From a virus (Duplodnaviria; Heunggongvirae; Uroviricota; Caudoviricetes), in the IMG/VR virus record IMGVR_UViG_2534681936_000021, positions 1 through 37,481 of that record: DNA of 37,481 bases; one strand, 5' to 3'. Numbering within the stretch: the first letter of the stretch is position 1; each line of letters starts with the position of its first letter. Of this stretch, positions 2,631-35,322 are shown in pieces. The notes beneath the pieces are model-generated. The model was not told where the DNA came from. It saw only the letters and a list, made by a program, of their open reading frames with translations, and ran no database searches. A program made the translations under genes and the position numbers.

Positions 2631-2640
2631 CAGGTGCTTT

Positions 2641-2928
2641 ATGACCAAAGACCATGCACAAGGTGTATTTATCCGTTTTATTGATTTTCGCGGTGAACTG
2701 TTATTACGTGCATCCGCTATTGACGGAGTGACTCCGGCGGGTAAAAACGGAGCCGACGAAGCCACTTACGTTTATCTGAACGGCACGCGACTGCTTCTGG
2801 AACTTCCGTACCAGACCGTACGAGAAATCATTAGCGAAGCTGAAAAGGCACGCCAGGCTAATGGCGATGAACCCTATATCGAAATTATTTGTATGGATTC
2901 AGAAGCTGAAATACAGAAAGCAGATTAA
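2641..2928 (+). CDS. early-region hypothetical protein (95 aa from the ATG at 2641)
   Basis: In-frame ATG at 2641 just after the upstream stop; the track ORF begins earlier at 2527 but overlaps the previous gene. Confidence 0.5.
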   Translation: MTKDHAQGVFIRFIDFRGELLLRASAIDGVTPAGKNGADEATYVYLNGTRLLLELPYQTVREIISEAEKARQANGDEPYIEIICMDSEAEIQKAD

Positions 2929-2936
2929 AGGGCGTT

Positions 2937-3182
2937 GTGATGGGCAAAGAATATAAAACTCTCATTAACAAAGCACTTGAGCGTTTTTATTTTCGCTTAA
3001 GTGCATCAGGCGCTCATGCTGAACGTGCGGCCCGTGACTCATTGACCAGAGCAATCCGAAGTCTGTATGACGTGGCTTTTTACGCTGATGATCTGGATGC
3101 ACTTAACGAACTTTCCGAGCTGATCTGTGCCGCAGAATGCGGGGAACATATTGAACCGTATAAGCTGGGGAATATCGCATGA
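2937..3182 (+). CDS. early-region hypothetical protein (about 80 aa)
   Basis: GTG-ATG start at 2937/2940 directly after the upstream stop. Confidence 0.45.
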   Translation: MMGKEYKTLINKALERFYFRLSASGAHAERAARDSLTRAIRSLYDVAFYADDLDALNELSELICAAECGEHIEPYKLGNIA

Positions 3183-3292
3183 GTATATTTATCTCATGGC
3201 TTGTTCTGATTATTTCGGTGGCCTGCGCTATTGGGATTATGCGAATTATTCATTCAATAAAAAAGATTGAACGTTTTTTCACTGGCGAATAA
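3179..3292 (+). CDS. possible 37-aa hydrophobic peptide (MSIFISWLVLIISVACAIGIM...), below the ORF-track size cutoff
   Basis: ATGA start/stop overlap with the upstream ORF; single predicted transmembrane helix. Confidence 0.3.
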   Translation: MSIFISWLVLIISVACAIGIMRIIHSIKKIERFFTGE

Positions 3293-3378
3293 CAGAGCAA
3301 ATAAAACCACAGATAAAATAAGAAAATGTAAAAACAATCCGCATTAGCGGAGGTATTCGCACACGCCAAGGAGGCGTA

Positions 3379-3582
3379 ATGGCAATTAAGCATTTTCCTG
3401 TCGTTCGTTTTACCTCCAGAGGGCGTGAATACGAAGTCGACGAACGCCTGATTACCACAATCGACAAACACCGTTCGGAAAAGGATGCACACCACATCTA
3501 CCTCACTGACGGCACTTACTTCTGCGCCACCAACGTGGCGCGGGTGAATCTTATCCGACAGGTACAGGAGCCACGCAGATGA
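3379..3582 (+). CDS. early-region hypothetical protein (67 aa)
   Basis: RBS aaggagg upstream; stop overlaps the next start (ATGA). Confidence 0.45.
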   Translation: MAIKHFPVVRFTSRGREYEVDERLITTIDKHRSEKDAHHIYLTDGTYFCATNVARVNLIRQVQEPRR

Positions 3583-3845
3583 CCATTCTGGACTACATCG
3601 CTACCCATCCGGGTTGTAGCGGCGGAGAAATCGCCGCAGCACTGAATACCCCAACCACAGCCATCAATGCTGAGTTACGCCGACTCTGGCGCGGCGGCTT
3701 AGTCATCAGAACAAACCGCAGCACAGGTGGTCGCGCTCGCAAAGCAGGAGGCCAAGCTTCTTACCACGTAAACCCGATGCCGTTCGGGTGTAGCAATCCA
3801 CTTACTCACATGTTTAACCAGCTACTGAAGGAAACCAGAGCATGA
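3579..3845 (+). CDS. early-region protein, possible winged-helix DNA-binding fold (88 aa)
   Basis: Translationally coupled to both neighbours; the N-terminal 60 aa read as a small helix-turn-helix/winged-helix pattern (inference only). Confidence 0.4.
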   Translation: MTILDYIATHPGCSGGEIAAALNTPTTAINAELRRLWRGGLVIRTNRSTGGRARKAGGQASYHVNPMPFGCSNPLTHMFNQLLKETRA

Positions 3846-4141
3846 GCACCATCAATCACCAGAAGCTACGCGAACTGGCATTTGCCCTGCAACGAATGGC
3901 AACGCCTCAAAAATTACTGGTATTTCGCGCAATGCTCTCGCCGTCTGCTGTGCTGGCACTGCTGGATGAGCTGGAGCACGCCAGAACCACGGCTCCTGCC
4001 ATTCGCCTGACGCTCCATCATGAAATCGCTGATTTCTGCGCGACGTTGAAGGCGCCAGGCGAACCGGAAACACCGGAAGTAATACAGCAAGAGCTGCTGC
4101 AACGCATTGACAAGGTTTTTGATTTTTTTCTGAACCAGTAA
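3842..4141 (+). CDS. early-region hypothetical protein (99 aa)
   Basis: ATGA overlap with the upstream gene. Confidence 0.45.
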   Translation: MSTINHQKLRELAFALQRMATPQKLLVFRAMLSPSAVLALLDELEHARTTAPAIRLTLHHEIADFCATLKAPGEPETPEVIQQELLQRIDKVFDFFLNQ

Positions 4142-7967: not shown

Positions 7968-8927
7968 ATGAAAATTTGTATCGATGACGGCTCCACCAAC
8001 ATCAAGCTGGCATGGACTGAGAACGGCGAACGCCGCAACGCCATCAGCCCAAACAGCTTCAAGTCGGAATGGTCTGCGCCGTTCGGTGGCACGCAGCCCG
8101 CGAACTACATGCTTGATGGCGTGCGCTATGGTTTTGATCCGGTCAGCGATCGCTTTGTCCAGACGACCGACACGCAATACCAGTACAGCGATGTGAATGT
8201 CATTGCTATTCATCACGCGCTGGTCAAATCAGGCATCACACCACAGGAAGTGGATGTGGTTGTCACCCTGCCACTGAGCGAATATTTCGACACAAACGCA
8301 CAGCCGGACATGGTCAACATCAACCGCAAAAAAGCGAACGTCATGCGCCCGGTGGAGTACCAGAACGGCGAAGCATTCACTATCCGTAACGTACGGGTTA
8401 TGCCTGAATCCATTCCGGCTGGCTTTAAAGCACTGGCTGACATGAGTCCGTTTGAATCCCTGCTGATTGTGGATTTGGGCGGAACCACGCTGGATGTGGC
8501 AAAGGTTCAGGGGCAACTGGCAGGTATCAGCCAGGTGTTTTGCGATCCACACGTAGGCGTTTCTCTGATGGCCGATGCCGTACTGTCGGTGATGGCCACT
8601 AACGGTATGCGCACCAGTCACCACATCGCCAATACCATTATCGAACGTCGCCATAATGAAGCCTGGCTGCGCCAGCACATCCACAATGACGCGCATTACG
8701 CCAGCCTGATGGCGGTTATTCGTGAAAAGGAAGAAACACTGAAACAACGCGTGATCCGCGCGCTGGCGGGTTTTTCGGGTTACGGGCGGGTGATGGTTGT
8801 CGGTGGAGGGGCGGAGATTGTGGCACCCGCTATCCGCGAAGCCTGCGGAGTTAATGCGACTTTCATCGCGGACGGGGTGCCACAGTTTGCTCTGGTTAAT
8901 GGGCTGTACGCAATGGACAAGGAGTAA
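7968..8927 (+). CDS. parM: ParM/StbA-family actin-like ATPase
   Basis: N-terminus MKICIDDGSTNIKLAW plus YSDVNVIAIHHAL, VMPESIPAGF, LIVDLGGTTLDV and VMVVGGGAE closely parallel plasmid R1 ParM as recalled. Confidence 0.85.
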   Translation: MKICIDDGSTNIKLAWTENGERRNAISPNSFKSEWSAPFGGTQPANYMLDGVRYGFDPVSDRFVQTTDTQYQYSDVNVIAIHHALVKSGITPQEVDVVVTLPLSEYFDTNAQPDMVNINRKKANVMRPVEYQNGEAFTIRNVRVMPESIPAGFKALADMSPFESLLIVDLGGTTLDVAKVQGQLAGISQVFCDPHVGVSLMADAVLSVMATNGMRTSHHIANTIIERRHNEAWLRQHIHNDAHYASLMAVIREKEETLKQRVIRALAGFSGYGRVMVVGGGAEIVAPAIREACGVNATFIADGVPQFALVNGLYAMDKE

Positions 8928-8931
8928 ACCA

Positions 8932-9243
8932 ATGACAACACCAACCAGACGGATAAGTTTCTATCTGAAGCCAGCTGCCGTCAAGAACGAAGGAGAAGCA
9001 TGCGCCTGGCTGGACAGCCTTACACCAGAAGCCCGCAAAAGCGGCCAACGCGTGGCTTTTCTGGCCGGGCTGGCACTTCTGAAGACGAATCCGGCAGAGG
9101 CTTACCGACTGGCCGCATGGGCTGATGATGAGATGTTACCTGTGACACAAATCAGCTCAAAAAAGTTTGAAGCACAGTCTGCACCAGTGGCTAAGATAAC
9201 CAGCCAGATGGCTGGGAATATCCGGGCGTTATTTCCTGAGTAA
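8932..9243 (+). CDS. parR: ParR-like small DNA-binding partner (103 aa)
   Basis: RBS aaggag upstream, 4 nt after the parM stop; N-terminus RRISFYLKP and LAGLALL segment resemble R1 ParR as recalled. Confidence 0.6.
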   Translation: MTTPTRRISFYLKPAAVKNEGEACAWLDSLTPEARKSGQRVAFLAGLALLKTNPAEAYRLAAWADDEMLPVTQISSKKFEAQSAPVAKITSQMAGNIRALFPE

Positions 9244-21660: not shown

Positions 21661-22261
21661 TTCGTTGTTACCACCATCAGCCAGCAATTTCATGCGTTGT
21701 GCCGAAGCCGTCGGAACACGCATTACAGACATTCCGGTAGACCTCAACACGCTGTGGTCGCCGGACACCTGCCCGGTGCATCTGCTGCCTTATCTCGCCT
21801 GGGCGTTTTCCGTTGACCGCTGGGATCGCAACTGGCCGGAAGAGACAAAGCGACAGGTAATTCGTGATGCATGGCTGATACACCGACACAAAGGGACCAT
21901 CAGCGCACTGCGAAGAGCCGTGGAGCCTCTCGGCTACCTGATTGAAGTAAAGGAGTGGTGGCAACTCAACGAGGAGCCAGGAACATTTCGCATTGTTGTC
22001 GGAGTACTTGATCAGGGCATCACCGATGAAATGTATCAGGAACTTGAGCGCCTTATTGCGGATGCAAAACCAGTAAGTCGCCATCTGACGGGGCTGGCGA
22101 TCAGCCTGAGTGTGAACGGAAAGATTTTCGTTGGTACGGGATGCTATCACGGCGATGCCCTGACGGTTTATCCCTACACCCCGGAGTCCATTATTGTCGA
22201 AGGGGATTATTTCCCTGCCCCGGCCATTCATTTAATTGATAATCTGAGAGTAAACGCATGA
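21653..22261 (+). CDS. I: baseplate protein gpI-like
   Basis: ATG at 21653 with RBS aaggtgga upstream; overlaps the J stop. Confidence 0.8.
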   Translation: MSNSLLPPSASNFMRCAEAVGTRITDIPVDLNTLWSPDTCPVHLLPYLAWAFSVDRWDRNWPEETKRQVIRDAWLIHRHKGTISALRRAVEPLGYLIEVKEWWQLNEEPGTFRIVVGVLDQGITDEMYQELERLIADAKPVSRHLTGLAISLSVNGKIFVGTGCYHGDALTVYPYTPESIIVEGDYFPAPAIHLIDNLRVNA

Positions 22262-23892
22262 CAGTGAAATACTACGCCATTCTGACTAATCAGGGCGCAG
22301 CACGACTGGCTAACGCGACGATGCTCGGCAGTAAGCTGAATCTGACGCAAATGGCCGTTGGTGATGCAAATGGTGTGTTACCAACACCAGACCCTGCACA
22401 AACAAAACTGATTAACCAGAAACGCATTGCACCGCTGAATCTTCTGAGTGTTGACCCTAACAATCAGAGCCAGATTATTGCGGAGCAAATCATCCCTGAA
22501 AACGAGGGAGGATTCTGGATCCGTGAGATTGGTCTTTATGATGATGAAGGTGTACTCATTGCGGTGGCAAACTGCCCGGAAACGTACAAACCGCAGTTGC
22601 AGGAAGGCAGTGGACGCACCCAGACTATCCGCATGATTCTGGTTGTCACGAACACCGAAGCCATCACGCTGAAAATCGACCCGTCTGTGGTTCTGGCAAC
22701 CCGCAAATATGTGGATGATAAAATATCAGAGCACGAACAGTCACGACGTCACCCGGACGCCTCGCTGACCGTAAAAGGTTTTACTCAGTTAAGCAGTGCA
22801 ATTAACAGTGAATCAGAAACACTGGCCGCAACACCGAAAGCGGTTAAGGCTGCATATGACCTGGCTAACGAGAAATATACCGCCCAGAACGCCACCACTA
22901 CACAAAAAGGGATTGTTCAGCTCAGTAGCGCCACGAACAGCACGTCTGAAACACTGGCAGCGACACCAAAAGCTGTTAAGGCGGTAATGGATGAAACGAA
23001 CAAGAAAGCACCATTAAACAGCCCGGCACTGACCGGAACGCCAACAACACCAACAGCGCCACAGGGGACTAATAGTACCCAGATCGCAAGCACGGCTTTC
23101 GTTATGGCCGCGATTGCCGCACTTGTAGATTCGTCACCTGATGCACTGAACACGCTGAACGAACTGGCTGCGGCGCTGGGCAATGACCCGAATTTTGCGA
23201 CCACCATGACTAACGCGCTTGCGGGTAAGCAACCGAAGGATGCCACCCTGACGGCGCTGGCGGAGCTTGCTACATCAGCAGATAAACTCCCATATTTTAC
23301 AGGGGCAGATCGTGCCGCGTTAACCGCGTTGACAAGTGTTGGACGTGCCATTCTTGGTAAAACCAGCACTCAGGGAGTTCTTGATTACCTTGGTTTGGGA
23401 GAAGGTTCGGCATTACCCGTTGGTGTGCCTGTTCCGTGGCCTTCCGCCACTCCGCCAACAGGCTGGCTGAAATGCAATGGTGCGGCTTTTTCTGCTGAAG
23501 AATACCCGGAACTGGCAAAGGCTTATCCAACAAATAAATTACCTGATTTACGCGGTGAGTTTATTCGTGGATGGGATGATAGTCGTGGTATCGACAACGG
23601 GCGTGCGCTGCTTTCATCTCAAGGCCATTCACTCAGAGACCACTCACATAACCAGCAGATCTGGACAGGTTCAAATACAACATCGTCAACTATTGGTCAG
23701 GCCGGGAGTTATGCTCCGCTAGCAACTGGAGGGGATGGGGGGATTGCCTATACTGACCGGGAGCCTCAAAGCCTACCTTCAGCAGTAAGAGCTGTCAGCA
23801 CTCGTGGGGTTGCTTCTGACAATGCAGCGAATATTGGCACTGAAACCCGCCCGCGCAACATTGCATTTAACTACATCGTGAGGGCTGCATAA
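22258..23892 (+). CDS. H: tail fibre protein gpH-like; constant N-terminal part fused to variable C-terminus 1
   Basis: 544 aa; internal SETLAATPKAVKA repeats; the left inversion crossover site lies at codon 377-378. Confidence 0.85.
   Translation: MTVKYYAILTNQGAARLANATMLGSKLNLTQMAVGDANGVLPTPDPAQTKLINQKRIAPLNLLSVDPNNQSQIIAEQIIPENEGGFWIREIGLYDDEGVLIAVANCPETYKPQLQEGSGRTQTIRMILVVTNTEAITLKIDPSVVLATRKYVDDKISEHEQSRRHPDASLTVKGFTQLSSAINSESETLAATPKAVKAAYDLANEKYTAQNATTTQKGIVQLSSATNSTSETLAATPKAVKAVMDETNKKAPLNSPALTGTPTTPTAPQGTNSTQIASTAFVMAAIAALVDSSPDALNTLNELAAALGNDPNFATTMTNALAGKQPKDATLTALAELATSADKLPYFTGADRAALTALTSVGRAILGKTSTQGVLDYLGLGEGSALPVGVPVPWPSATPPTGWLKCNGAAFSAEEYPELAKAYPTNKLPDLRGEFIRGWDDSRGIDNGRALLSSQGHSLRDHSHNQQIWTGSNTTSSTIGQAGSYAPLATGGDGGIAYTDREPQSLPSAVRAVSTRGVASDNAANIGTETRPRNIAFNYIVRAA
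22790..22990 (+). repeat. in-frame tandem repeat in the tail fibre (two copies of the SETLAATPKAVKA-containing unit)
   Basis: Repeated peptide in the H translation. Confidence 0.5.
23378..23403. promoter_or_regulatory. left crossover site for the DNA invertase (gix/hix-like, 26 bp: ttcttgattacc-tt-ggtttgggagaa)
   Basis: 12-bp half-sites around a 2-bp core; inner half plus core is the exact reverse complement of 25254-25267. Confidence 0.65.
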
Positions 23893-24494
23893 TGACACAG
23901 GCAAAATTAAACAGTGAATTTATTGCCACAGTAGCGGGTGATATTACCGTCTATAACTATGACAACACGACACGGGAATACATTTCATCATCAACAGAAT
24001 ATCTTGCCGTTGGCGTCGGTATCCCGGCATGTTCTTGTTTAGATGCACCAGTTACACATAAAGCTGGTTATGCAATCTGCCGTTCTGCAGATTTTAACTC
24101 ATGGGAATATGTACCAGACCATCGCGGTGAAATCATCTATAGCACCGAAACAGGAGAATCGAAAGAAATCACAGCTCCGGGTGATTACCCTGAAAATACA
24201 ACCACTATCGCCCCGTTAACGCCATTCGATAAATGGGATGGTGAGAAATGGGTGACGGATACCGAGGCACAGCATAGCGCCGCACTAGACGCGGCAGAAG
24301 CAAAGCGCCAGTCGCTGATTGATGCTGCAATGGCTTCCATCAGTCTGATTCAGATGAAATTACGGGCCGGGCGGAAGCTGACGCAGGCAGAAACCACCCG
24401 ACTTAACGCTGTGCTGGATTACATTGACGCGGTGGAGGCAACAGATACCAGCACCGCGCCTGATGTCATCTGGCCTGAACTGCCGGAGGCGTAG
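23892..24494 (+). CDS. G: tail fibre assembly chaperone gpG-like (copy 1)
   Basis: 200 aa; C-terminal WPELPEA-type tail typical of fibre assembly proteins; follows H. Confidence 0.8.
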   Translation: MTQAKLNSEFIATVAGDITVYNYDNTTREYISSSTEYLAVGVGIPACSCLDAPVTHKAGYAICRSADFNSWEYVPDHRGEIIYSTETGESKEITAPGDYPENTTTIAPLTPFDKWDGEKWVTDTEAQHSAALDAAEAKRQSLIDAAMASISLIQMKLRAGRKLTQAETTRLNAVLDYIDAVEATDTSTAPDVIWPELPEA

Positions 24495-24906
24495 GCCATT
24501 CAATATCTGGCGCACCGGAAGTATCGACCAGTTCCAGTGCGTCCAGATAATCCAGCCACAAATTATATTGCGCCAGTTCCCCACCTTTCAGGCGACCAAT
24601 CGCCGCTTTACCAGGCCATTGCTTACTGTTTATGTATTCGTTGACCTGATTAATCAATTGCTGCTTTTCCAGTTCGGCTGCGGCAATTTGTTCCTCATGA
24701 GTTGGCGGTGGAGTATCAATCCATGCAGGCATTCCGTCGATGACACCTCTGTATTTTCCTTCTGGTGCTTCCTTCATAAATTCGGCGGCAACAGTGTCGT
24801 CAATTTCGATTCCATCACCGGGCCATTCGCCGGATTCCTGATAAGCGATTTTAAGCTCCACAGGGAAAAACGCATTTTTATCGGCACTGAAAATATATTT
24901 CTGCAT
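24466..24906 (-). CDS. tail fibre assembly chaperone, alternative copy (G')
   Basis: 146 aa, convergent with and overlapping G by 29 bp; similar C-terminal motif (DIEWPTPP). Confidence 0.75.
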   Translation of the reverse strand: MQKYIFSADKNAFFPVELKIAYQESGEWPGDGIEIDDTVAAEFMKEAPEGKYRGVIDGMPAWIDTPPPTHEEQIAAAELEKQQLINQVNEYINSKQWPGKAAIGRLKGGELAQYNLWLDYLDALELVDTSGAPDIEWPTPPAVQAR

Positions 24907-24908
24907 TT

Positions 24909-25307
24909 CTACCGTCCTATCGAAATATAACTGAATCTGTATTGCTGTGAGATATCACTGGTTGCCACACGCCACGCTGAATTACTGATATGTTCAAAAT
25001 TTACAGACAAAACCTGCGGGGCAGGATTCGACGGGGCTGACTGAACGGCATCAGACATAACACTGACTGAAACCATCGGCTGATTAGGGAATGGTATAGG
25101 GAAGTGTCCACTGATAAAGCGGGTCGTGTTTCCTGAAAAAGTGCCAAACTGAACAATATATCCACCTGGTAGCCTGAACCATCCCGAACCAGAAGCGAAT
25201 GCTCCCATATCCGGTATCTGATTATCTCCTGTGCCCACATTCCGTTTTGCCGCTTCTCCCAAACCAACGTTTAAGAAAATGCAGAGATTATGGCTAACTG
25301 GCATCAT
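24909..25307 (-). CDS. alternative tail fibre C-terminal segment (Hv'); functional only when fused to the H N-terminus by inversion
   Basis: Frame is continuous with the crossover core at 25265; translation after the core (GLGEAAKRNVG...) parallels H after its core (GLGEGSALPVG...). Confidence 0.6.
   Translation of the reverse strand: MMPVSHNLCIFLNVGLGEAAKRNVGTGDNQIPDMGAFASGSGWFRLPGGYIVQFGTFSGNTTRFISGHFPIPFPNQPMVSVSVMSDAVQSAPSNPAPQVLSVNFEHISNSAWRVATSDISQQYRFSYISIGR
25254..25279. promoter_or_regulatory. right crossover site for the DNA invertase (ttctcccaaacc-aa-cgtttaagaaaa)
   Basis: Inverted partner of 23378-23403; lies 56 bp upstream of the invertase gene. Confidence 0.65.
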
Positions 25308-25334
25308 CCCCGGTTTTTATTCAGGGGATCCATC

Positions 25335-25934
25335 ATGCTTATTGGCTATGTCCGCGTATCAACAAATGACCAGAATACAGAATTGCAGCGTAACGCGCTG
25401 GAGTGCGCAGGATGTGAACTGATTTTTGAAGATAAAATCAGCGGAACGAAATCAGCCAGACCGGGATTGAAAAAACTGATCAGAACGCTATCAGAAGGAG
25501 ATACGCTGGTTGTCTGGAAGCTGGACAGACTGGGCAGAAGTATGAAACACCTGATCACGCTTATTGAGGAATTGCGGGAAAAAGGTGTTAATTTCCGTAG
25601 TCTGACGGACAGCATTGACACATCAACACCCATGGGGCGTTTCTTTTTTCACGTCATGGGGGCTTTAGCCGAAATGGAACGTGAATTAATTGTAGAGCGT
25701 ACACTGGCCGGGCTGGCAGCAGCACGCGCACAAGGACGCATTGGCGGACGTCGCCCGAAGTTGACAAAAGAACAACACGAGCAAATAGCGAGGCTGATTA
25801 AAAACGGTCATGACAGGAAACAACTGGCGATCATTTACGACATCGGCATATCGACGATTTATCGTTATCACCCTGTAGGCGATATACAGGCTGAAGAAAC
25901 AACCAGGCAGACTCAGGAAAATGAAAACCGCTAA
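25335..25934 (+). CDS. serine DNA invertase (Gin/Hin/Pin/Cin family)
   Basis: N-terminus MLIGYVRVSTNDQNTELQ with the catalytic serine context; resolvase-type fold and C-terminal helix-turn-helix (GISTIYRY). Confidence 0.9.
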   Translation: MLIGYVRVSTNDQNTELQRNALECAGCELIFEDKISGTKSARPGLKKLIRTLSEGDTLVVWKLDRLGRSMKHLITLIEELREKGVNFRSLTDSIDTSTPMGRFFFHVMGALAEMERELIVERTLAGLAAARAQGRIGGRRPKLTKEQHEQIARLIKNGHDRKQLAIIYDIGISTIYRYHPVGDIQAEETTRQTQENENR

Positions 25935-25953
25935 TCTGACCATTAGCGGTTTT
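25924..25953. terminator. hairpin between the convergent invertase and U genes (aaaaccgctaat / attagcggtttt)
   Basis: 12-bp perfect stem spanning the invertase stop; short T-run on both sides. Confidence 0.45.
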
Positions 25954-25960
25954 GCGTTAA

Positions 25961-26455
25961 TCAAAACAGCCCTTTAACGGAGCTGGCCGCGCTGTTAAGG
26001 GATGATGTGACCTTATCTTTGAAGCCGGACAGCATATCACTGAACGATGAGGATTGCAGGCGCTCCCGCAAATCCTCATCACAGCGTTCAAGGGTCAGTG
26101 AAAATTCTATCTTTTTCGCCTTACCGTAGCGATCAAACTCGGAACGGGTCGTATTCGTTCCAGTCAGGACATACATGCCGTAAATCTGCCCGACGCCATC
26201 AATCAAAGGCCAGGGTCGTCCTGTATAAGCCTGCGTGGTCAGCAGCGACAGCGACACTTCGCCACCTGTAATTTCAGGATAAAGCACACCAGAAAGAACG
26301 ATGCGATCATCACCTGCACCGATATACTGCCAGCTTGCTGAACGGTTAATGCGTTCATTTTTCACATGCCGCCAGCTTTTGTTTTGCTGTAACTGCTGAT
26401 GCGGCAGCGTGCGCAGCTCAAAAACAAACATGCCGTAGATCATCATCATGGCCAT
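25961..26455 (-). CDS. U: tail protein gpU-like
   Basis: 164 aa, immediately downstream of the tape measure gene on the same strand. Confidence 0.8.
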   Translation of the reverse strand: MAMMMIYGMFVFELRTLPHQQLQQNKSWRHVKNERINRSASWQYIGAGDDRIVLSGVLYPEITGGEVSLSLLTTQAYTGRPWPLIDGVGQIYGMYVLTGTNTTRSEFDRYGKAKKIEFSLTLERCDEDLRERLQSSSFSDMLSGFKDKVTSSLNSAASSVKGLF

Positions 26456-26461
26456 GACTCC

Positions 26462-29305
26462 TCAATCTTTATCGTAAAAACTGCCACGCCCGGCACGGGC
26501 GCGCCGTTCCATTTCTGCCCTGACCATTTCACCGACCAGTTTCGCCAGTTCGCGGGGATTCTGCGTAACAACGTTATGCAGATGAACATGAATTTCACCA
26601 CCAAATTCGGAGGCAACAGGCTCCCGGTTACGGGAAGTTACAGGAACTGATGCCACTGGAGATCGTATAGCCTCCGCCACCGGGCGGGAGCTGGCCGCAA
26701 CAACAGTGACCAGCGCCGGAGGCAGCGGAGCCGGGACCACGGGTGTGATATTAATTGCGGGGGCAGGCTTACTGACCTGCGCAATCTTCCGCTCCTGCCA
26801 CTCCCCACGAACAGCAAGTGCCCGGGGCAGGTTTTTAAAGACAATATCGCCGGGGCCAATGCGTTTTTTCGTCTCCTCAACCAGCTTACCTGTGTTATCA
26901 GCAATTTTGCTGAGTCTGCGCAGCGTACCGGTATTGCTGTCTGTGAGCGGTTTATTGTCTTTGGGGTTATCACCTCCGGTGCCATTGCCATTTTCCACAG
27001 GCTTCGGCGGATTGATTTTCGCCAGGTCCCCCTGAAGCAAGGCAACCTTGTCCTGAAGAATGGCCGCACGCTGTGCGTCTTCGATTTTCTTGCGCGCCCT
27101 TTCCGCTTCATCCGGAAGCACACCAAGCTTTTCAAGTATCCACGCCAGCGTATCCAGCAACATTTTTGCAGGTGTCAGAACAAGTTGTAACGCACCGCCA
27201 AGAACGTTACCGAATATCTCGCCAGCACTGGTACATTTATCCAGAGTTTCCTTGCTGGACTCCATCGGTGACAGCAGCGATTTAAACCAGTTAAACACCT
27301 GGCTGATCCCACTCCCGATTGCGTCAAAAACAGGACTAAACCGTTCAAAGGTTTCGCGCAACGGGGTCAGCCTTTCCATAATCCCGCTGAACACCCCGGC
27401 AAAAAATGCCCTGATGGGATCCCAGTATTTCCAGATAAGAACGGCAGCTCCGGCAAGCGCAGCCACGATAAGACCAACCGGACTGAACAACGCCCCGATA
27501 GCGCCTCCCAGCAAAGAAACGGAACCCGTCACCATTCCCCATAGTGCTGGCAGAACCCTGACAGCATTCATTGATCCGGTCAGGAGGGAAAAACCAAGAC
27601 GCAGTTTTGCCAGCGGGCCAGCAAGCACACCAATAGCCAGCGACAACGAGCCAACCGTTGCAGTCATTGCCAGCAGTGCACCGCCTGCAATCAGTAGCTG
27701 GCGCGTCAGTGCGGGATGGGCCTGCGCCAGCGCCGTCACCTTTGATACCACACGCGTGAGCCACTGCGTGACAGAACGCAGCGGACCGTCAATCAGATCT
27801 GCAATGCGGATGCGCAACCCTTCCCATGCACTGCTGAGTGATTTCAGATCGCCGTCAAGGTTGTTGGCCATAACCTTTGCCGTGCGTTCAGCCTCACCGC
27901 GCGCACCTTCAAGTTCTTTTCTCAGTTTGGGTAAGGAGCCGTCACCTGCCGCATCAACGAGGGCCATAAATGATGTGAAAGCCTCTTCTCCGGCAATGTC
28001 CTTAAAGAACGATACCCGGTCAACTTCCCCGTATTTGCGGGTAGCTTTATAAAGGTCAGCCAGCACATCCTCCATCGGACGCATTTTGCCCCCGGCATCC
28101 GAGACAGACACGCCAAGCTCTTTCAGCGCCTCTGCTGCCGCCTTTGGCGGTGATGCCAGACGAGCCAGGCTGGCACGCATTGCCGTCCCGGCATCACTCC
28201 CCCTGATACCCATATTCGCCAGCACGCCTGCCATCGCTGCGGCCTGCTCCAGCGATATTCCCAGCTTACCCGCCACCGGACCTGCATATTTCATGGTTTC
28301 ACCCAGTGCGCGAAGGTCAGTGTTGGTACGGGTAAACGCTGCGGTGAGTGTGTCGCCGACCCGGTCCATCTGGTCAGCAGAAAGACCGAACTGCGTCAGA
28401 ATATTTGAGCCAATATCCGCCGTCTCACCGAGGTCCATACCGCCAGCCGTTGCCATGCTCAGTACGCCAGGGAGCGCAGCCTGAATGGCCTGTGGTGTGA
28501 AGCCGGCCATTGCAAGAAATGCCTGCCCACTGGCGGCATCGCCTGCGGTGAACTGCGTTTCAGAGCCAAGTTTTAACGCCTGCTCACGCAGCGCCTTAAA
28601 CTGCGGGCTGTTTTTGTCGATTCGCGTCAGTGCCTGAACGCGGGACATCTCTTTCCCGAACCCGATCGCAGGCTGCAAAAAACGCCCGGCAGCATAGCCG
28701 CCCGCAGCTGCCGCACCAATTGCCAGCGCACCACCTGTTTTCAGTTTTCCCGCTGTTTCCTGCGCGCGCGAATACCGCTCACGCGCCCGCGTTACACGCG
28801 CAAGCGCCTGCCGTTCGCGTTCAAGCTGGTTGTTGTACTGTTCGGTGCGTCTGATGGCCTGCTGGATGGTGTTATCGCTGCCTGTCAGGGAAATGCCGTG
28901 GCGTTTCAGCTCTCCGCCAAGCTCCCGCATTTTCTGAATTTCCCGTGTGCGCGATTCATTCAGGCGTTCAAGCCGGGTGCTTAACTGCTGCATCAGCTTT
29001 TGTTGTTTTTCGCTGAGCACTGTACCCGTGCGTTGTAACTGATTAAGGGCGTTAAGCTGGCGTCGTGCTTTCACGATACCCGCATCCGCTTTACTGACAG
29101 CGTCGCGGGCGCGCTCAAATGAACGCGCCTGACGCTCGAGATTTTTGATCGCCCCCTGCGTTCGCTGGATGGAGTCACCAAACTGCCCCATCAGGCGGCG
29201 GGCGTTTTCGGCAGGCCGGGTCAGCCTGTCAACGGCGCTGAAAGCGACCCGGATATCAAGAGTCTTCATTGTCTGCATTCCCGCTGCGAAGTGCCGCCCG
29301 CTCAC
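26462..29305 (-). CDS. T: tail tape measure protein gpT-like
   Basis: 947 aa, coiled-coil N-terminal half and glycine/alanine-rich hydrophobic central region. Confidence 0.85.
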   Translation of the reverse strand: MSGRHFAAGMQTMKTLDIRVAFSAVDRLTRPAENARRLMGQFGDSIQRTQGAIKNLERQARSFERARDAVSKADAGIVKARRQLNALNQLQRTGTVLSEKQQKLMQQLSTRLERLNESRTREIQKMRELGGELKRHGISLTGSDNTIQQAIRRTEQYNNQLERERQALARVTRARERYSRAQETAGKLKTGGALAIGAAAAGGYAAGRFLQPAIGFGKEMSRVQALTRIDKNSPQFKALREQALKLGSETQFTAGDAASGQAFLAMAGFTPQAIQAALPGVLSMATAGGMDLGETADIGSNILTQFGLSADQMDRVGDTLTAAFTRTNTDLRALGETMKYAGPVAGKLGISLEQAAAMAGVLANMGIRGSDAGTAMRASLARLASPPKAAAEALKELGVSVSDAGGKMRPMEDVLADLYKATRKYGEVDRVSFFKDIAGEEAFTSFMALVDAAGDGSLPKLRKELEGARGEAERTAKVMANNLDGDLKSLSSAWEGLRIRIADLIDGPLRSVTQWLTRVVSKVTALAQAHPALTRQLLIAGGALLAMTATVGSLSLAIGVLAGPLAKLRLGFSLLTGSMNAVRVLPALWGMVTGSVSLLGGAIGALFSPVGLIVAALAGAAVLIWKYWDPIRAFFAGVFSGIMERLTPLRETFERFSPVFDAIGSGISQVFNWFKSLLSPMESSKETLDKCTSAGEIFGNVLGGALQLVLTPAKMLLDTLAWILEKLGVLPDEAERARKKIEDAQRAAILQDKVALLQGDLAKINPPKPVENGNGTGGDNPKDNKPLTDSNTGTLRRLSKIADNTGKLVEETKKRIGPGDIVFKNLPRALAVRGEWQERKIAQVSKPAPAINITPVVPAPLPPALVTVVAASSRPVAEAIRSPVASVPVTSRNREPVASEFGGEIHVHLHNVVTQNPRELAKLVGEMVRAEMERRARAGRGSFYDKD

Positions 29306-29474
29306 GCCAGCTAACCACTTCGCCGGGCGTCATCATGAAGATTTCGGCGGGCGACCAGTTAAAAATAACGGCAATATCTGCCACAAAGTCTTCTATGTGC
29401 TCAAAGCACACAACCGTGATCAGGCTTCCGTCGCCTGTTCGTTCTTCCCGCCAGAGTCCGCACCGCTCAAAAAA
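29256..29474 (-). CDS. E' extension, expressed as an E+E' fusion by programmed -1 frameshift
   Basis: ORF in the -1 frame continues from the slippery site and overlaps the T start. Confidence 0.6.
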   Translation of the reverse strand, partial: FFERCGLWREERTGDGSLITVVCFEHIEDFVADIAVIFNWSPAEIFMMTPGEVVSWRERAALRSGNADNEDS

Positions 29475-29785
29475 TTTACGGCAACCACACATAACTGAAT
29501 AAAGTCACGGGATGCTATTTTTTTGATCGTCACTTCATCCAGTCGCGGTGATGTCACGCGTGACAGCAGCGTAAACATGGATTCCGCTTTCAGATTCAGC
29601 ACATCAGACAGCGACAAATCTCGCAGAGATCCAGCCTGCTCAATAGCTCCGGTGATCTCCACATACGTGATTTTTTCGCCGCCTCGCTCAATTGGTTGGG
29701 TAAGTTTTACGCCACGCTCACTGGTTTCTTTCACAGTGTCAGCAACGACCGTGTTTTCGGTATCGATGTTTTTCGTCTCTTTCAT
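29420..29785 (-). CDS. E: tail assembly chaperone gpE-like
   Basis: 121 aa; RBS aaggag upstream; lies between the tube and tape measure genes. Confidence 0.8.
   Translation of the reverse strand: MKETKNIDTENTVVADTVKETSERGVKLTQPIERGGEKITYVEITGAIEQAGSLRDLSLSDVLNLKAESMFTLLSRVTSPRLDEVTIKKIASRDFIQLCVVAVNFLSGADSGGKNEQATEA
29468..29474 (-). other. slippery heptamer T_TTT_TTG for the programmed -1 frameshift (E to E+E')
   Basis: TTTTTTG in the correct register near the 3' end of E (zero-frame codons TTT TTG). Confidence 0.65.
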
Positions 29786-29839
29786 CAGGAAACTCCTTTC
29801 AGTCAGAGGCGACGCACTGCGCCGCCTGCATATTACTTA

Positions 29840-30352
29840 TCAGCCAAGCCCGAGCGCGGAACGGATGCGATCGGGCACAATGTCCTTGCCGTCCTTCCGG
29901 TAAATGAAGTTCAGCAGGTCAATCTCCCACAACGGGCGATCGTTAACACTCAGCTTGTAGTAGGTGTTTTTAATGGCGTAAGTGTGTGATGTGGCTTCGC
30001 CCTGTTTGGCTTCCCCCATATCAATTTCCGTCACACGTCCGCGCATTTCGACTTCATACAGGTCGCTTTCTGCATCGGTGTAATATTCACCCGCAAAACG
30101 CAGCAGCGTGCCGTCAATCGTGCCGCCATACTTAAGGAACAGCTCACGAACTGCGCCCCCCATGACAAAGCTCGCATCAAGCGCGGAGTCGTCCAGACCG
30201 AGATCAATACTTACCGCCCCCATCATGCCACCACCCCGGTAGCTGTCGGTTTTGCGCGTCAGCTTAGGCAGAGTGACGGACGTCACCTTACCCACTTCGT
30301 TTTCACCATCCACAAACAGCGTAAAAAAGCGAAGATGTTTTGGCACAGCCAT
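29840..30352 (-). CDS. FII: tail tube protein gpFII-like
   Basis: 170 aa directly downstream of the sheath gene. Confidence 0.85.
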   Translation of the reverse strand: MAVPKHLRFFTLFVDGENEVGKVTSVTLPKLTRKTDSYRGGGMMGAVSIDLGLDDSALDASFVMGGAVRELFLKYGGTIDGTLLRFAGEYYTDAESDLYEVEMRGRVTEIDMGEAKQGEATSHTYAIKNTYYKLSVNDRPLWEIDLLNFIYRKDGKDIVPDRIRSALGLG

Positions 30353-31536
30353 CAGGCACCTCCCAGCACCGCAAATGCGGGACCAAAGAATTCATCAGTA
30401 AACGTCTGGTAAAGCTCCATGTCTTCCAGTGGCGGAACGGGCGTATATTTGTAGCGAATACGCACACGCCCCTGACGTAAATCCGTGGTGCCGTTATCCA
30501 CCACGTCATACCAGCACGACGCCCCAATCAGTTTCCCGGCAGTAACCAGTGAATCCAGTTTTGCCCTGATGGCACTGATAACATCTTTCACGTTCGCAGG
30601 CGTCAGTGGACTGTCGATGGTTTCAAACTGCGCTTCCGCAATTGAATCAGCCAGCACCTGTGCGGTTCGGGTATACACCTCAAAGATGTAGGCGTTCGTT
30701 TCCGGTGTGCGGTTGCCCCAGAAGCGGAACCCGTTGCGACGAATAATGGTCGTGATTTCTTTGTTGTTGAGGCTGTTGGCATCACTGTCTTCGGCCTGCA
30801 ACGACCAGAACACATGCCTCGACATCCCCAGCACATTCTTAACCGGAACGTTGGAGAGTGATTTGTGCCATCCCTGCTCATGGTCAATGTACGCACGAAG
30901 GCCGCACGCATAGGCAGGCGCGGGGAACGTTTCGTTTTTGCCACTTTTCGGGTTGTAGGCGATGAAGTCCGGCCATAAGAGCATCACCTCACGTTCGTTG
31001 AATTTCTGGCGGTAGGTAATCGCATCAGCCATCGTGTCACAGCCATGACATGAGGCATACACAAACGCGCGCAGTTTACCCGCAATCACGCACAGGGATT
31101 TTGTCACCGCCTCCGTATCCAGCTCCGGCGCGGCCAGAATACGCGGACGGTATCCGATGCTTTCATCCTGCTCTGCAACAAGCAGCGCATACATCCCCGT
31201 ATAGCTGCCGTCAGATTCAGAACCACCGATAACCAGTTGATCCTGCGTTTTTCCGTCTTCTTCTTTGTGTTCAGCCACGCGAACGACGATCACCTTTGTG
31301 CTCACCTGGTCTGCGATGGCCTTAAGCGCACGATAAAGCGTCCCCGTTGTTCCGCATTTTCCCAGCACGTCATTGACGCGGGTCAGCAGTGTGGGCTTGT
31401 TCAGCGGGAACAGCTCCGCGTCCGCATCATCCGCCGTTGCCACGATACCGATAACACTGGAATCAACATCATTAATCGCTGTTACCAGGTCGGTACTTTC
31501 CGTAACACGGGCACCATGAAAACGAGTTTCACTCAT
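30352..31536 (-). CDS. FI: contractile tail sheath protein gpFI-like
   Basis: 394 aa; segments FPLNKP, KLRAF, WPDF, DHEQGWHKSLSNV, RRNGFRFWGNRT, YTRTAQV and YTPVPPLE resemble P2 FI as recalled. Confidence 0.9.
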   Translation of the reverse strand: MSETRFHGARVTESTDLVTAINDVDSSVIGIVATADDADAELFPLNKPTLLTRVNDVLGKCGTTGTLYRALKAIADQVSTKVIVVRVAEHKEEDGKTQDQLVIGGSESDGSYTGMYALLVAEQDESIGYRPRILAAPELDTEAVTKSLCVIAGKLRAFVYASCHGCDTMADAITYRQKFNEREVMLLWPDFIAYNPKSGKNETFPAPAYACGLRAYIDHEQGWHKSLSNVPVKNVLGMSRHVFWSLQAEDSDANSLNNKEITTIIRRNGFRFWGNRTPETNAYIFEVYTRTAQVLADSIAEAQFETIDSPLTPANVKDVISAIRAKLDSLVTAGKLIGASCWYDVVDNGTTDLRQGRVRIRYKYTPVPPLEDMELYQTFTDEFFGPAFAVLGGA

Positions 31537-31693
31537 AGCTTCAGCCCCTTGTATCCGTTAAATGATTCGGCAACAATCATCACCCACCACGCGCGTAATC
31601 TCACTCCTGCGCCGTTCTCCCGCCACGGCGACAACAAAAAGCAGTAACCCCCTCCGCACGCACATGCGACCATGCCGCACAGGGAGGGAACAG

Positions 31694-32802
31694 ATGACCG
31701 ACACCACCATGCAATTGCTCAGTCAGGGCACAGACCCCGTGAAAATGCCGGATTTTGATATTCTCGCGGAGGGTAAAACGCTGTCAGGCGTGGCAGAGCG
31801 CCTGATGAGCCTGTCACTGACCGACAACCGGGGATTTGAAGCGGACCAGCTCACCATCACGCTGGATGATGCGGATGGTCAGTTGCAGCTACCGCCACGG
31901 GGCGCGCGCCTGACGGTTCTCATTGGCTGGAAAGGAGAACCGCTGACAGAAAAAGGCACTTACATTGTTGATGAAATCGCTCACGAAGGACCGCCGGACA
32001 GGCTGACTGTTTCAGCCAGAAGCGCAGATTTTCGGGATGAATTTAACGTTAAACGTGAGGTGTCCTGGCATGATGTGACCGTTGAGCGTGTGGTATCCGC
32101 CATCGCTCATCGGTACGGTCTGAAACCGCAAATCAGCGAAATGCTGATGGATATCGAAATCGACCACGCCGACCAGACCGAAGAAAGCGACATGTCCTTC
32201 CTTACGCGCATGGCGGAAATGCTGGGCGCAATCACCACGGTAAAAAGCGGCAATCTGTTATTCATCATGCCTGGTGGTGGCGTGAACGCACAGGGCCAGC
32301 CGTTGCCCTCGTTCGCCATTACACGCAGCAGTGGCGATCGCCATCAGTTCCGCATTGCTGACCGCGAGGCGTATACGGGTGTACGCGCCTACTGGCTTGA
32401 TCTTAATTACGGGAAAAAGAAAAAGTCAGCGTGAAACGCCGCAAACCGCCAAAACCCAAAAAGGAGAAAAGCAGCAGCCGTGAAGGTGATTATATGGAAG
32501 GCGCGGAAGGCAATGTGTTTGTGTTACGCAAGACTTATCAGAACGAGCAGGCAGCAAGACGCGCAGCGGCGGCAAAGTGGCAGCAGCTACAACGCGGAGC
32601 CGCATCATTCTCCATCATGCTGGCACGCGGACGCGCAGAACTCTACCCCGAAATGCATGGCACGGTAACAGGCTTTAAAAGCGAGATTGATAATCAGGAC
32701 TGGATTATTGCAAAAGCCGAGCACACCATTGATAACAGCGGCTTTACCACACAGCTTGAGCTTGAGGCAAAAATCCCGGAATGGATAGCAGAAACAGAGT
32801 GA
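31694..32802 (+). pseudogene. D: late control / tail protein gpD-like, split by a single-base frameshift in the gggaaaaagaaaaag run (about 32411-32430)
   Basis: Track ORFs ending at 32434 and starting at 32431 together give a gpD-like protein (...SWHDVT..., ...GDRHQF..., ...QDWIIAKAEH...SGFTTQLELE...). Confidence 0.75.
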
Positions 32803-32870
32803 GCAACTTAGACATATTAGCTCAGACTTAAACTGGCAAGTTTACAGTATAGAATTAAACATAAACGACG

Positions 32871-32899
32871 GTCCGCTCCGTGTCAGAAGCGGACTTTGT
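32871..32899. terminator. hairpin between convergent D and the 340-aa gene (gtccgct / agcggac followed by TTTGTC)
   Basis: 7-bp stem flanked by A-rich and T-rich sequence. Confidence 0.45.
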
Positions 32900-32922
32900 C
32901 ATCCCTATGTAAGGTTGATTGC

Positions 32923-33945
32923 TTAATACGCATTTAATTTAAATTTGTATTTGCCTTCTATGTAATGGATAAATTCAATTATGCTTTTTTCTATCGCATC
33001 TAATATATGAATATATCCATCCCGATTTAAGGTCCTATCCAACTCAAAGTGATGAACTATCCCATGTCTATATTGTATGATTTCAGAAATTCGATTCTCA
33101 AGAAAATCAACTGATTTTCCAATTCTTTTTTTCTTATAAAGAATCGCTCTCACATCTATATCCAGCCACTCTTTATATGCTTTGTTTAGGTGGGTTAAGT
33201 TTTGAAAAGTGTAATTTCTTGCAATAACACTTTCTATTGAAATATTTCCTTTCTCTATCTCAAGCAGAATATCAAAATCAACTTTTTGCTTATACGATGT
33301 TCTTTTTGCTATTGCGAAAGGATCGTACTTTATAAGTATTTGAAAAGCTCTAGAGAAAAAATATTCAAACATAGCAACCGCAAAAGGTACTAATCCATTA
33401 TATATAACTCTACTGGGATCCATACATTGCATGTAATCAAAGTATTCGGATAAGCCGCCATCTTCCGGTAGGTTTAATTTAATAGAAGGTTCAGGTAAGG
33501 CATGTTTAACAGCGGAAATCTCATGATGGACATGATTAAATATTGAAGAAATGCCACGACTGATCGGACTACTAGAATCCTTCCATAGAGGAGCGTACCT
33601 ATTTTTCCCATAATCACCTATAAGTGTTCCACCAAAAAGACTCCGTGCGCCTTTTAGAACATCATTAAGCATTTTTACATCATGCCAACTAGCGCTATAT
33701 AAATTACGCACATGCAATGCCCATTTATTACCAGATATGTGTAGTTCGTCATTTGAAACAGGATATATATCAGCCGAAACTCCATCTGTAGATTTGAAGT
33801 CCGTATCATCAAACCAAGAGTAATTCAACGTTCCTTGGGGCCATTCCCACAAATGTTTACACCTTTTAAAACCTAAATTTTCAAGGTAATTTTTAAGTTC
33901 GTTTCTAGTTGCTTTTTTAGGGTACAGCGTTATATCTCTTCCCAT
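32923..33945 (-). CDS. hypothetical 340-aa protein in an AT-rich insertion; C-terminal Rx4HH motif (candidate HEPN-like abortive-infection protein)
   Basis: Long clean ORF in markedly AT-rich DNA between D and ogr; motif YRHGIVHHFE near the C-terminus. Confidence 0.6.
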   Translation of the reverse strand: MGRDITLYPKKATRNELKNYLENLGFKRCKHLWEWPQGTLNYSWFDDTDFKSTDGVSADIYPVSNDELHISGNKWALHVRNLYSASWHDVKMLNDVLKGARSLFGGTLIGDYGKNRYAPLWKDSSSPISRGISSIFNHVHHEISAVKHALPEPSIKLNLPEDGGLSEYFDYMQCMDPSRVIYNGLVPFAVAMFEYFFSRAFQILIKYDPFAIAKRTSYKQKVDFDILLEIEKGNISIESVIARNYTFQNLTHLNKAYKEWLDIDVRAILYKKKRIGKSVDFLENRISEIIQYRHGIVHHFELDRTLNRDGYIHILDAIEKSIIEFIHYIEGKYKFKLNAY

Positions 33946-34136
33946 GCTTTATTCACCTGATATACAATATTTTAAATTTTAACTATTATGAACGTATGAA
34001 TTTTCACATTGGATGTATGGAAGTTCAACAACTATTGAAAGTTCAATTTTCACTCTTCGCACAGAGCGAGCTGTTAGTTGGAATTAGGGATCGTACAATC
34101 TAGAATAGCGGCAACACCACGTTAAGGGAGGTCGCT

Positions 34137-34397
34137 ATGTTCCGTTGTCCGCTTTGTGGCGCATCTGCCCGTATCCGCACAAGTCGTCCGGAAAATGATT
34201 CAAACACCGTGCGGCAAAAGTATTACCAGTGTAACAATCTGGAATGCGGCGTATGCTTCTCAACACTGGAAGCTTTCCATAAATTCACATCGAAACACGC
34301 CTCCGGCGTTCACTCTTCAGAAGGTATCCCGTGGCATGAGCTACCAGCTTCACACAGGGGAAACAATCAGATGAGTTTGCCTTTACCTCAGAATTAA
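34137..34397 (+). CDS. ogr: Ogr/Delta-family zinc-finger late transcription activator
   Basis: MFRCPLCGA...CNNLEC zinc-finger pattern typical of P2 Ogr; RBS agggagg upstream. Confidence 0.8.
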   Translation: MFRCPLCGASARIRTSRPENDSNTVRQKYYQCNNLECGVCFSTLEAFHKFTSKHASGVHSSEGIPWHELPASHRGNNQMSLPLPQN

Positions 34398-34588
34398 CAA
34401 GCAGAATTGCCGGAGTAACAAAAAAGCGATAGATTACGCGCGGGTGCCTTTCGGCTGATGGTCGGAGGGAATACCCGAAGGCCAGATGTGGAAAGGCCCC
34501 GGAAAACACTTTTGTTTAACCGAGGCCCTAACCGTCTACCCTAAGCAAGTGAAAGGTTAGCGCCTCTCCGGAAAAGGAGCAAGTGCTA

Positions 34589-34729
34589 TGTCGCAAAAAT
34601 CGCTTACAGCCATCACGTTCTGCGTGACGGTAATCCTCATCATCTGGATGTTGCACGGTTCGCTGTGCGAAATACGGATGAGTTTCTGGGGAGCGGAGTT
34701 TGCGGCGTTCTTACAGTGTAAGCAGTAAG
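34589..34729 (+). CDS. Hok/Gef-family type I toxin (46 aa), below the ORF-track size cutoff
   Basis: MSQKSLTAITFCVTVILIIWMLHGSLCEIR...AEFAAFL: transmembrane helix followed by the Hok-like SLCEIR and E(F/V)AAF motifs; RBS aaggag 8 nt upstream. Confidence 0.6.
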
Positions 34730-34738
34730 GAAACCGCG

Positions 34739-34760
34739 ACGGGGGAGTAATCCCCCGTCA
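34739..34760 (+). other. stable 9-bp hairpin just 3' of the hok-like ORF (gacggggga-gtaa-tcccccgtc)
   Basis: Perfect inverted repeat 10 nt after the stop; consistent with a hok mRNA 3' fold. Confidence 0.5.
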
Positions 34761-34989
34761 ATCGGTTGCCAGGGTAAGGTCGATAAGGCACCCTATCTCA
34801 CGGCTCTAAATGCAAAAATTCCATGAAACTGTGGGATTTTTGCATCACTACTGATACAGATCTGACCTTCTTTATGTCTCACTCTATACCAGCTAATCAA
34901 TTGACACTTATCAATAAAAAAAAATCTGATAAAATCAAAATGTTTTGTAACAAATATCAACTCGTATTGATCCAAAGGAGGCGGATTAC

Positions 34990-35322
34990 ATGGCATTAAT
35001 CAAATGTCCTGAATGCCAGAAAGAGGTGAGCGATTCAGCATTGTATTGCCCTGCTTGCGGTAAACAAATAAAAAAACTTAAGCGTTCATTTTTTGGAAAG
35101 CTCATTAAGTGGATTTTTATATTATTTAATATTTTTATGATCTATACGCTTTTAGTTGGACTGGGAGGCACTAGTGAAATAATAAATAATGCTACATCCG
35201 ATGCCGAAAAAGCCGGTGCAGTTATTGGTACAGGCTTAGGTTTAATTACCATTGGAAGTTTATGGGTTATTGGCGATATCATTATCGGAATTTTAGTGTT
35301 TCTTACTAAACCAAAAGGATAA
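34990..35322 (+). CDS. zinc-ribbon membrane protein (110 aa)
   Basis: N-terminal CPEC...CPAC zinc ribbon followed by two hydrophobic helices; AT-rich context. Confidence 0.5.
   Translation: MALIKCPECQKEVSDSALYCPACGKQIKKLKRSFFGKLIKWIFILFNIFMIYTLLVGLGGTSEIINNATSDAEKAGAVIGTGLGLITIGSLWVIGDIIIGILVFLTKPKG

Follow-up and report, generated by a model that had tools for sequence, protein, structure and literature searches.

In the G segment of phage Mu and the C segment of phage P1, inverted by the recombinases Gin and Cin, a constant N-terminal part of the tail fibre is joined to either of two tips, each with a chaperone of its own, and both systems use 26-bp crossover sites with a 2-bp core and carry the recombinational enhancer inside the invertase gene. 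The P segment of e14, a defective lambdoid remnant in Escherichia coli K-12, is served by the invertase Pin (pinE), while the H segment of Salmonella is inverted by Hin, an enzyme of the same family, with an enhancer in the invertase gene and Fis sites 47–48 bp apart (PMC3798978). Here we analyse a 37,481-nucleotide stretch of viral DNA (IMG/VR record IMGVR_UViG_2534681936_000021, positions 1 to 37,481; hereafter the window), and in it the tail-fibre gene H together with the segment downstream of it and the DNA invertase gene beyond. We consider it very likely that this region is a two-state site-specific inversion switch of the Pin/Gin type (Din family) in the tail fibre of a P2-like, Gemsvirus-type prophage.

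The P segment of e14 resembles this locus in its order of site, short spacer and invertase and shares one homologous cassette with it (StfE/TfaE); in e14 tfaP and tfaE converge with a 29-bp overlap, as do the corresponding genes G′ and G here. The differences are that the window holds a complete-looking P2-like (Gemsvirus-type) prophage with a constant fibre part of the P2 gpH type, that its second, gp53-like tip has no match to e14 StfP and no counterpart in e14, Mu or P1, that its invertase has a 15-residue C-terminal extension relative to Pin, and that the outer half of its left crossover site is unlike that of pixL. In Mu the invertase is placed relative to the segment as it is here, whereas P1 has cin on the opposite side and cixL at the 3′ end of that gene. 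At 1.9 kb, the segment in the window is shorter than those of Mu (∼3.1 kb, 31966-35025 of the Mu record) and P1 (4.2 kb), and its core is TT/AA in contrast to the CG-containing core (TC/GA) of the Mu gix sites. The Salmonella system has the same Fis/enhancer geometry, but Hin flips a promoter and hin lies inside its segment, whereas here the invertase gene lies outside the segment and it is the coding 3′ ends that are exchanged.

Among P2-like phages, Escherichia phage 500465-2 (Peduoviridae, genus Gemsvirus) has the same gene order of H, G, G′, alternative tip, DNA invertase, opposite-strand U to FI, and D; its DNA is ∼91% identical across the invertase and the right-hand portion of the cassette, and its record already annotates a DNA invertase. 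From the invertible loci of other P2-like (Peduoviridae) phages the window differs only in its tip combination, although ‘Peduovirus magyaro’, unlike the window, keeps the canonical P2 orientation for the tail operon that follows the invertase. Fin of Fels-2 is reportedly another P2-like invertible tail-fibre system. The switch is already known, as a standard representative of a family that has been characterised in depth, in a phage group annotated to carry it, and DNA invertases are frequent at the P2 hotspot (bioRxiv 10.1101/2024.10.15.618418).

Inversion of the segment exchanges the tip of gene H in frame

Gene H occupies 22258-23892 on the plus strand and encodes 544 residues according to the open reading frame (ORF) list and Pfam. 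Its constant N-terminal part (22258..23389) is P2 gpH-like (Pfam Phage_tail_fib, 1.5e-62; Phage_fiber_2, 2.1e-42), comprises a tail-collar fibre N-terminal domain and fibre repeats, and is named ‘phage tail protein’ by the Prokaryotic Genome Annotation Pipeline (PGAP). In the present orientation it continues into a StfE-like variable C-terminal tip (23392..23892, plus strand; Pfam Collar, 4.5e-15, residues 389-436), which has 61% amino acid identity to e14 stfE and is followed, in expressed position, by the gene for the TfaE-like chaperone G (23892-24494, plus strand; 200 residues; Pfam Caudo_TAP, 2.1e-32). The G protein is 88.5% identical to e14 TfaE and fully identical to WP_000189502.1, annotated as tfaE (‘tail fiber assembly protein’) in strain 300709. 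On the minus strand lie a TfaP-like alternative chaperone, G′ (24466-24906; 146 residues; Pfam Caudo_TAP, 1.7e-32; 56% amino acid identity to e14 TfaP), convergent with G and overlapping it by 29 bp, and an alternative, presently unfused H tip (24909-25265; gp53-like, 118 residues after the core; Pfam Gp53-like_C, 2.6e-9), the open frame of which runs up to the right crossover site. The ORFs and Pfam matches agree with a first-pass annotation of this DNA, which had placed the H tip with G on one strand and an alternative tip with G′ on the other: the segment holds two different tip domains, Collar and Gp53-like_C, each with its own Caudo_TAP chaperone. By tblastn the gp53-like tip showed no homology to e14 StfP, and neither tip showed homology to S or S′ of Mu or P1 at the sensitivity used.

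The first-pass annotation had further held that codon phase is kept at both cores. When the segment is inverted in silico from core to core (23390..25267, 1878 bp, no strand), H stays in frame, its 544 residues giving way to an unbroken 496-residue ORF that reads ...DYLGLGE/AAKRNVGTGDNQIPDM... across the junction, and the start of G′ comes to lie 2 bp past the stop of this 496-residue H. The core TT supplies codon positions 2 and 3 in both frames, namely in CTT (Leu) of H and in GTT (Val) of the minus-strand ORF. The frame-preserving geometry of the inversion is therefore real, and because the left site lies inside H and both cores have the same codon phase, each orientation fuses H to one tip.

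The crossover sites resemble those of e14

The left crossover site (L, pixL-like; 23378-23403, plus strand) reads TTCTTGATTACC-TT-GGTTTGGGAGAA, with its core TT at 23390-23391, within the H coding sequence (codons ...Y L G L G E), and the right site (R, pixR-like; 25254-25279, plus strand) reads TTCTCCCAAACC-AA-CGTTTAAGAAAA, with its core AA at 25266-25267. As the first-pass annotation had described, the two are 26 bp long, inverted relative to each other and identical in inner half and core. They form imperfect dyads of two 12-bp half-sites around a 2-bp core, and the 14 bp of inner half-site plus core, TTGGTTTGGGAGAA, are common to L and the reverse complement of R. The identity between L and R reaches 15 bp in all, starting at the core, while their outer half-sites are unlike.

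For comparison, reference loci were taken out of the Mu, K-12 e14 and P1 records. Alignment with known sites had been proposed as a check in the first-pass annotation, and L and R indeed align base for base with pix, cix and gix of e14, P1 and Mu. Relative to e14 pixL, CTCTCGAAAACC-TT-GGTTTGGGAGAA, L is identical in inner half and core and different in its outer half; relative to e14 pixR, TTCTCCCAAACC-AA-CGTTTATGAAAA, R is different at 1/26 positions; and the inner half plus core of L and R (TT-GGTTTGGGAGAA) is the same as in both e14 sites. On these alignments L and R classify as pix-type sites. Their core dinucleotide, TT/AA, is the same in both, non-palindromic, and also that of pix and cix. 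In the Din family a non-palindromic core that is alike in both sites makes religation possible only after inversion. The P1 record puts the cix crossover mid-way in the homologous TT core.

Across the 37.5-kb window, the exact 14-mer of L and R occurs at no third place, and a degenerate 26-bp Din-type consensus (≤3 mismatches) matches L and R only, against 0.15 matches expected by chance and at least four strand-matches in 0/100 shuffles. There are only two sites in the window and therefore no shufflon: an arrangement with additional sites, as in p15B and one P2-like prophage of enteropathogenic E. coli (EPEC), is ruled out by the 14-mer and degenerate 26-mer scans. Of the P2-like prophages of EPEC E2348/69, one locus is a three-site shufflon, unlike the two-site window (PMC4272514).

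From 23386-23390 on, the window DNA matches otherwise unrelated phages, namely Klebsiella P2-like phages, a Salmonella phage and the lambdoid phage HK106, the match to HK106 falling under its annotated side tail fibre and tail-fibre assembly genes. Because this homology starts exactly at the left crossover site, the site also serves as a module boundary for horizontal exchange of cassettes of tip and chaperone. That the homology of Klebsiella P2-like phages and the HK106 side tail fibre begins precisely at 23386-23390 could also mean that the inverted repeats are a mere conserved coding motif (LGLGE), located at a module boundary where tips are exchanged by homologous or illegitimate recombination, and no substrate for inversion. 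We consider this highly improbable. The full 26-bp dyad consensus fits, including the outer half-sites, which do not encode the shared motif, and there is, at a distance of 56 bp, an intact gene for a Pin-like invertase that contains a conserved enhancer. In two independent pairs of genomes (below) the inversion is precise, otherwise mutation-free and bounded by the 15-bp identity, and a 15-bp repeat is far below the length for efficient RecA-dependent inversion. Moreover, the roles of exchange boundary and inversion site are not exclusive.

Near-identical prophages occur in both orientations

If the segment is a site-specific inversion switch, both orientations should be found. We searched E. 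coli complete genomes with the native and the in-silico inverted sequence. The inverted sequence found a match in strain JB2 with 100% coverage in one piece, and the native sequence matches strain 300709 equally well. Over 9061 bp, JB2 and 300709 differ by 1 single-nucleotide polymorphism (SNP), outside the segment, once the predicted interval is inverted, and by 1427 mismatches without inversion; the crossover sites of their homologous prophage are identical to those of the window. A second pair, O157:H7 strains BB24-1 and FRIK944, has 0 mismatches over 6095 bp once a homologous segment of 1914 bp is inverted and 1410 without inversion; here too the 26-bp sites are identical to the window’s, and the fused H reads 501 residues. 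Since the two outer half-sites are unlike, the breakpoints in both pairs can be confined to the 15-bp identity. Junction-specific searches detected 107 E. coli genomes with the native H fusion and 16 with the alternative one, for which strain EC02 has a 100% identical junction. Near-identical prophages with identical sites thus occur naturally in both orientations. As both reading frames survive the inversion, this bears out the idea of an invertible segment that swaps the tip together with its chaperone. Inversion in e14 and in EPEC P2-like prophages has been shown by sequencing and polymerase chain reaction (PMC4272514).

In the inverted-orientation genomes PGAP splits the in-frame fused fibre into pseudogene or partial fragments and a separate ‘gp53-like domain-containing protein’ (3088-3849 and 2359-3108 of locus L001; 857-2362 of locus L011), although the ORFs read through, over 496 and 501 residues. 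Such partial and pseudogene pieces could suggest messy assemblies, and with them that the orientation differences among public genomes are assembly artefacts, a reading to which we give next to no credence: the fused ORFs are uninterrupted, assemblers cannot be misled by a 15-bp repeat, and in each of two independent pairs the breakpoints coincide exactly with the recombination sites, while a mixed culture would in itself be evidence of inversion. The fragments are instead an annotation artefact of invertible loci, the flags reflecting model matching and not broken frames.

The main value of recognising the site-specific inversion switch is correct annotation, and the locus illustrates phage bet-hedging by a switch cleanly. 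In RefSeq its parts carry generic labels (‘recombinase family protein’, ‘gp53-like domain-containing protein’). The switch accounts for apparent fibre pseudogenes in genomes of the other orientation and for orientation differences among otherwise identical O157:H7 and O55:H7 genomes, which are otherwise open to misreading as assembly errors or strain markers. In addition, the presence of identical pix-type sites across several prophage types suggests that resident invertases can cross-act, which is relevant to locus-based typing and to the engineering of phages with programmable host range.

The invertase gene and a putative Fis-dependent enhancer

The DNA invertase gene (25335-25934, plus strand) encodes a serine recombinase of the Pin/Gin/Cin/Hin group with 199 residues (Pfam Resolvase, 8.9e-52; HTH_7, 1.4e-12). 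Enzymes of the Din family are small, at ∼185–200 residues, with the nucleophilic Ser9/10 in an N-terminal catalytic domain. Its ATG at 25335 stands 56 bp past the end of the right site at 25279, exactly the distance given in the first-pass annotation, and its ORF is intact up to the stop at 25934. Of the references compared, Pin is the closest to the protein, with 82% identity, followed by Cin (75%) and Gin (73%). All three align to its first 181 residues without gaps, with YVRVS invariant in all four. The catalytic Ser9 lies in this motif and a helix-turn-helix at the C-terminus. The Gin structure sequences 4m6f and 3uj3 are matched with E = 2.5e-91 and E = 1.2e-90, and the C-terminal domain matches the structure of the Hin DNA-binding domain (E = 1.6e-11). 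The assignment to a Gin/Hin-type system in the first-pass annotation is therefore sound as to the family (Resolvase and HTH_7 domains, Gin structure matches), while the closest relative is now refined to Pin and the pix sites of e14. The DNA-binding domain also has an Arg-Leu pair that matches Hin residues, the corresponding residues of Hin being reported as contacting Fis (PMC3798978). Position 114 is the wild-type Met, so the enzyme is no known Fis-independent mutant.

Several smaller features surround this gene. A polar C-terminal extension of ∼15 residues (VGDIQAEETTRQTQENENR; 25878-25934) has no equivalent in Pin or Cin and does not resemble the tail of Gin. An upstream in-frame ATG at 25290 would lengthen the protein by 15 residues, and a weak terminator-like hairpin (AACTGG...CCGGTT, then TTTAT) lies at 25296-25315, between the right site and the invertase start. 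At the other end, a 12-bp perfect hairpin (25924..25953, an inverted repeat with no strand) extends over the invertase stop codon as a terminator-like site; it separates the invertase gene from the convergent gpU gene and is likely a bidirectional terminator.

Inside the 5′ coding region of the invertase gene, the stretch 25353..25424 (plus strand) is a putative Fis-dependent recombinational enhancer. Its position in a gap-free alignment makes it the homologue of nt 19-90 of P1 cin, which the P1 record annotates as the enhancer, and it contains two Fis-site-like 15-mers of the form G-N13-C (25357-25371 and 25405-25419) that are kept in gin, pin and cin as well. From centre to centre they are separated by 48 bp, with ∼97 bp between the proximal one and the right core; the corresponding figures for the Hin enhancer are 47 bp between Fis-site centres and ∼100 bp from hixL (PMC3798978). 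Among the four invertase genes, identical codons at invariant amino acids make up 6/19 inside the enhancer stretch and 9/97 outside it (Fisher p = 0.017), an excess of synonymous-codon identity that lends modest support to a constraint beyond coding. At the sequence level the stretch has what the Din family possesses as an enhancer, with Fis binding itself being a prediction.

Probable activity of the switch in the window prophage

We propose that dimers of the 199-residue serine invertase would bind both 26-bp pix-type sites and that, with Fis on the enhancer in the invertase gene, an invertasome would be assembled on supercoiled DNA. Both sites would then be cut at the TT/AA core with a 2-bp stagger, one pair of subunits would rotate by 180 degrees, and religation would leave the 1.9-kb segment inverted. 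Each orientation would combine the constant 377-378 N-terminal residues of H with one of the two tips and place the matching chaperone gene directly downstream, the present one giving the StfE-like Collar tip with the TfaE-like G and the other the gp53-like tip with the TfaP-like G′, such that a lysogenic population could produce virions with two receptor specificities. Fis dependence, the position of cleavage within the core and the effect on host range are what we infer from the Hin/Gin/Cin literature, and supercoiling dependence, the 2-bp stagger and a phosphoserine intermediate would be expected from 73–82% identity to enzymes for which these have been shown. That the two orientations differ in receptor or host specificity is suggested by their differing tip domains (Collar versus gp53-like).

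The switch is probably active, but several observations weigh against activity or against the way we read the locus. Compared with the near-identical record FDAARGOS_946, a run of A7 at 14964 (A8 in FDAARGOS_946) truncates the P2-family major capsid ORF, and a run of A5 at 32425 (A6 in FDAARGOS_946) splits gpD into 31562-32434 and 32431-32802. The two genomes that are 100% identical over 22900-25960, FDAARGOS_946 and DEC5A, are both in the window’s orientation. The invertase has I49 where the enzyme of JB2/300709, a lineage seen in both orientations, has L, and it differs from the O157:H7 invertase at 3 positions (I49L, T190I and T193I, the latter two in the C-terminal extension). A consensus scan for a sigma-70-like promoter in or near the 56-bp spacer found none, a scan that is to be taken as uninformative and not as negative, and the conservation of the enhancer is partly confounded by protein-coding constraint.

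Together these points raise the alternative that the switch is a relic in this strain, with sites and invertase that look intact in a prophage that is defective (like e14) or in which the invertase is unexpressed. The truncated capsid ORF, the split gpD, the single orientation of both identical genomes and the lack of a promoter-like site upstream of the invertase in the consensus scan all speak for it, and if the capsid and gpD frameshifts are real, there would be no virions and hence no effect of the switch on host range in this strain. Nevertheless, we hold a relic to be unlikely. Single-base homopolymer changes are typical of sequencing error, and the capsid gene is intact in the sister record; sites, enhancer and invertase ORF are all intact; both orientations are found among prophages in which the sites are identical and the invertase is nearly so; and e14, though defective, still inverts (PMC4272514). 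The invertase changes relative to the two-orientation lineages look conservative. The homopolymer differences may be either sequencing errors or marks of a defective prophage.

The prophage and its other genes

By sequence comparison the window is an E. coli P2-like, Gemsvirus-type prophage. The query region 22900-25960 is found with 100% identity in FDAARGOS_946 and in E. coli O55:H7 DEC5A, and over the whole window only three homopolymer lengths and one SNP (36267) differ from the FDAARGOS_946 record, in which the PGAP annotation lists a full P2 gene set. The P2 gene order is followed, with int, C/cox, A, Q-P divergent from O-N-M-L, lysis genes, R-S-V-W-J-I-H-G and ogr, and the tail operon FI to U follows the invertase on the opposite strand, in the same order as in Gemsvirus 500465-2, the gpD of which is intact with 413 residues. 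A run of T7 at 35584 (T8 in FDAARGOS_946) lies in a TagO-like gene that the FDAARGOS_946 record annotates as frameshifted.

The tail operon U, T, E′, E, FII, FI (5.6 kb, 25961-31536) lies on the minus strand and starts right after the invertase gene. Its orientation is the reverse of that in canonical P2 and ‘Peduovirus magyaro’, while gpD remains on the plus strand, an arrangement also present in Gemsvirus 500465-2, JB2, 300709 and O157:H7. At the borders of the operon we found no pix-like sites or long inverted repeats, just a 9-bp match at chance level. As a speculation that we regard as improbable, the operon inversion could have been made (or occasionally still be made) by the invertase at secondary, now-decayed sites, or the enzyme could cross-act on other Din-type segments of the same genome; where a genome has a match, its related places number 2 at the median and 12 at most.

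The prophage also carries cargo genes. After the replication gene A lie a gene for a ParM actin-like segregation ATPase (7968-8927) and one for a Plasmid_stab_B (ParR-like) protein (∼8932-9243), and such a plasmid-type partition module is unusual cargo for an integrase-carrying prophage. The interval from gpD to ogr is a known hotspot for P2 cargo, and in it there is an orphan ORF of 340 residues (32923-33945, minus strand), the only match of which, to HEPN RiboL-PSP, stays below threshold (E = 1.2e-4, 22.5 bits, cutoff 28.4); PADLOC returned no matches for the neighbouring cargo genes, this ORF included. It may encode a defence protein or toxin not yet characterised. Towards the right end of the prophage, a Hok/Gef family toxin gene (34589-34729) follows directly after ogr.

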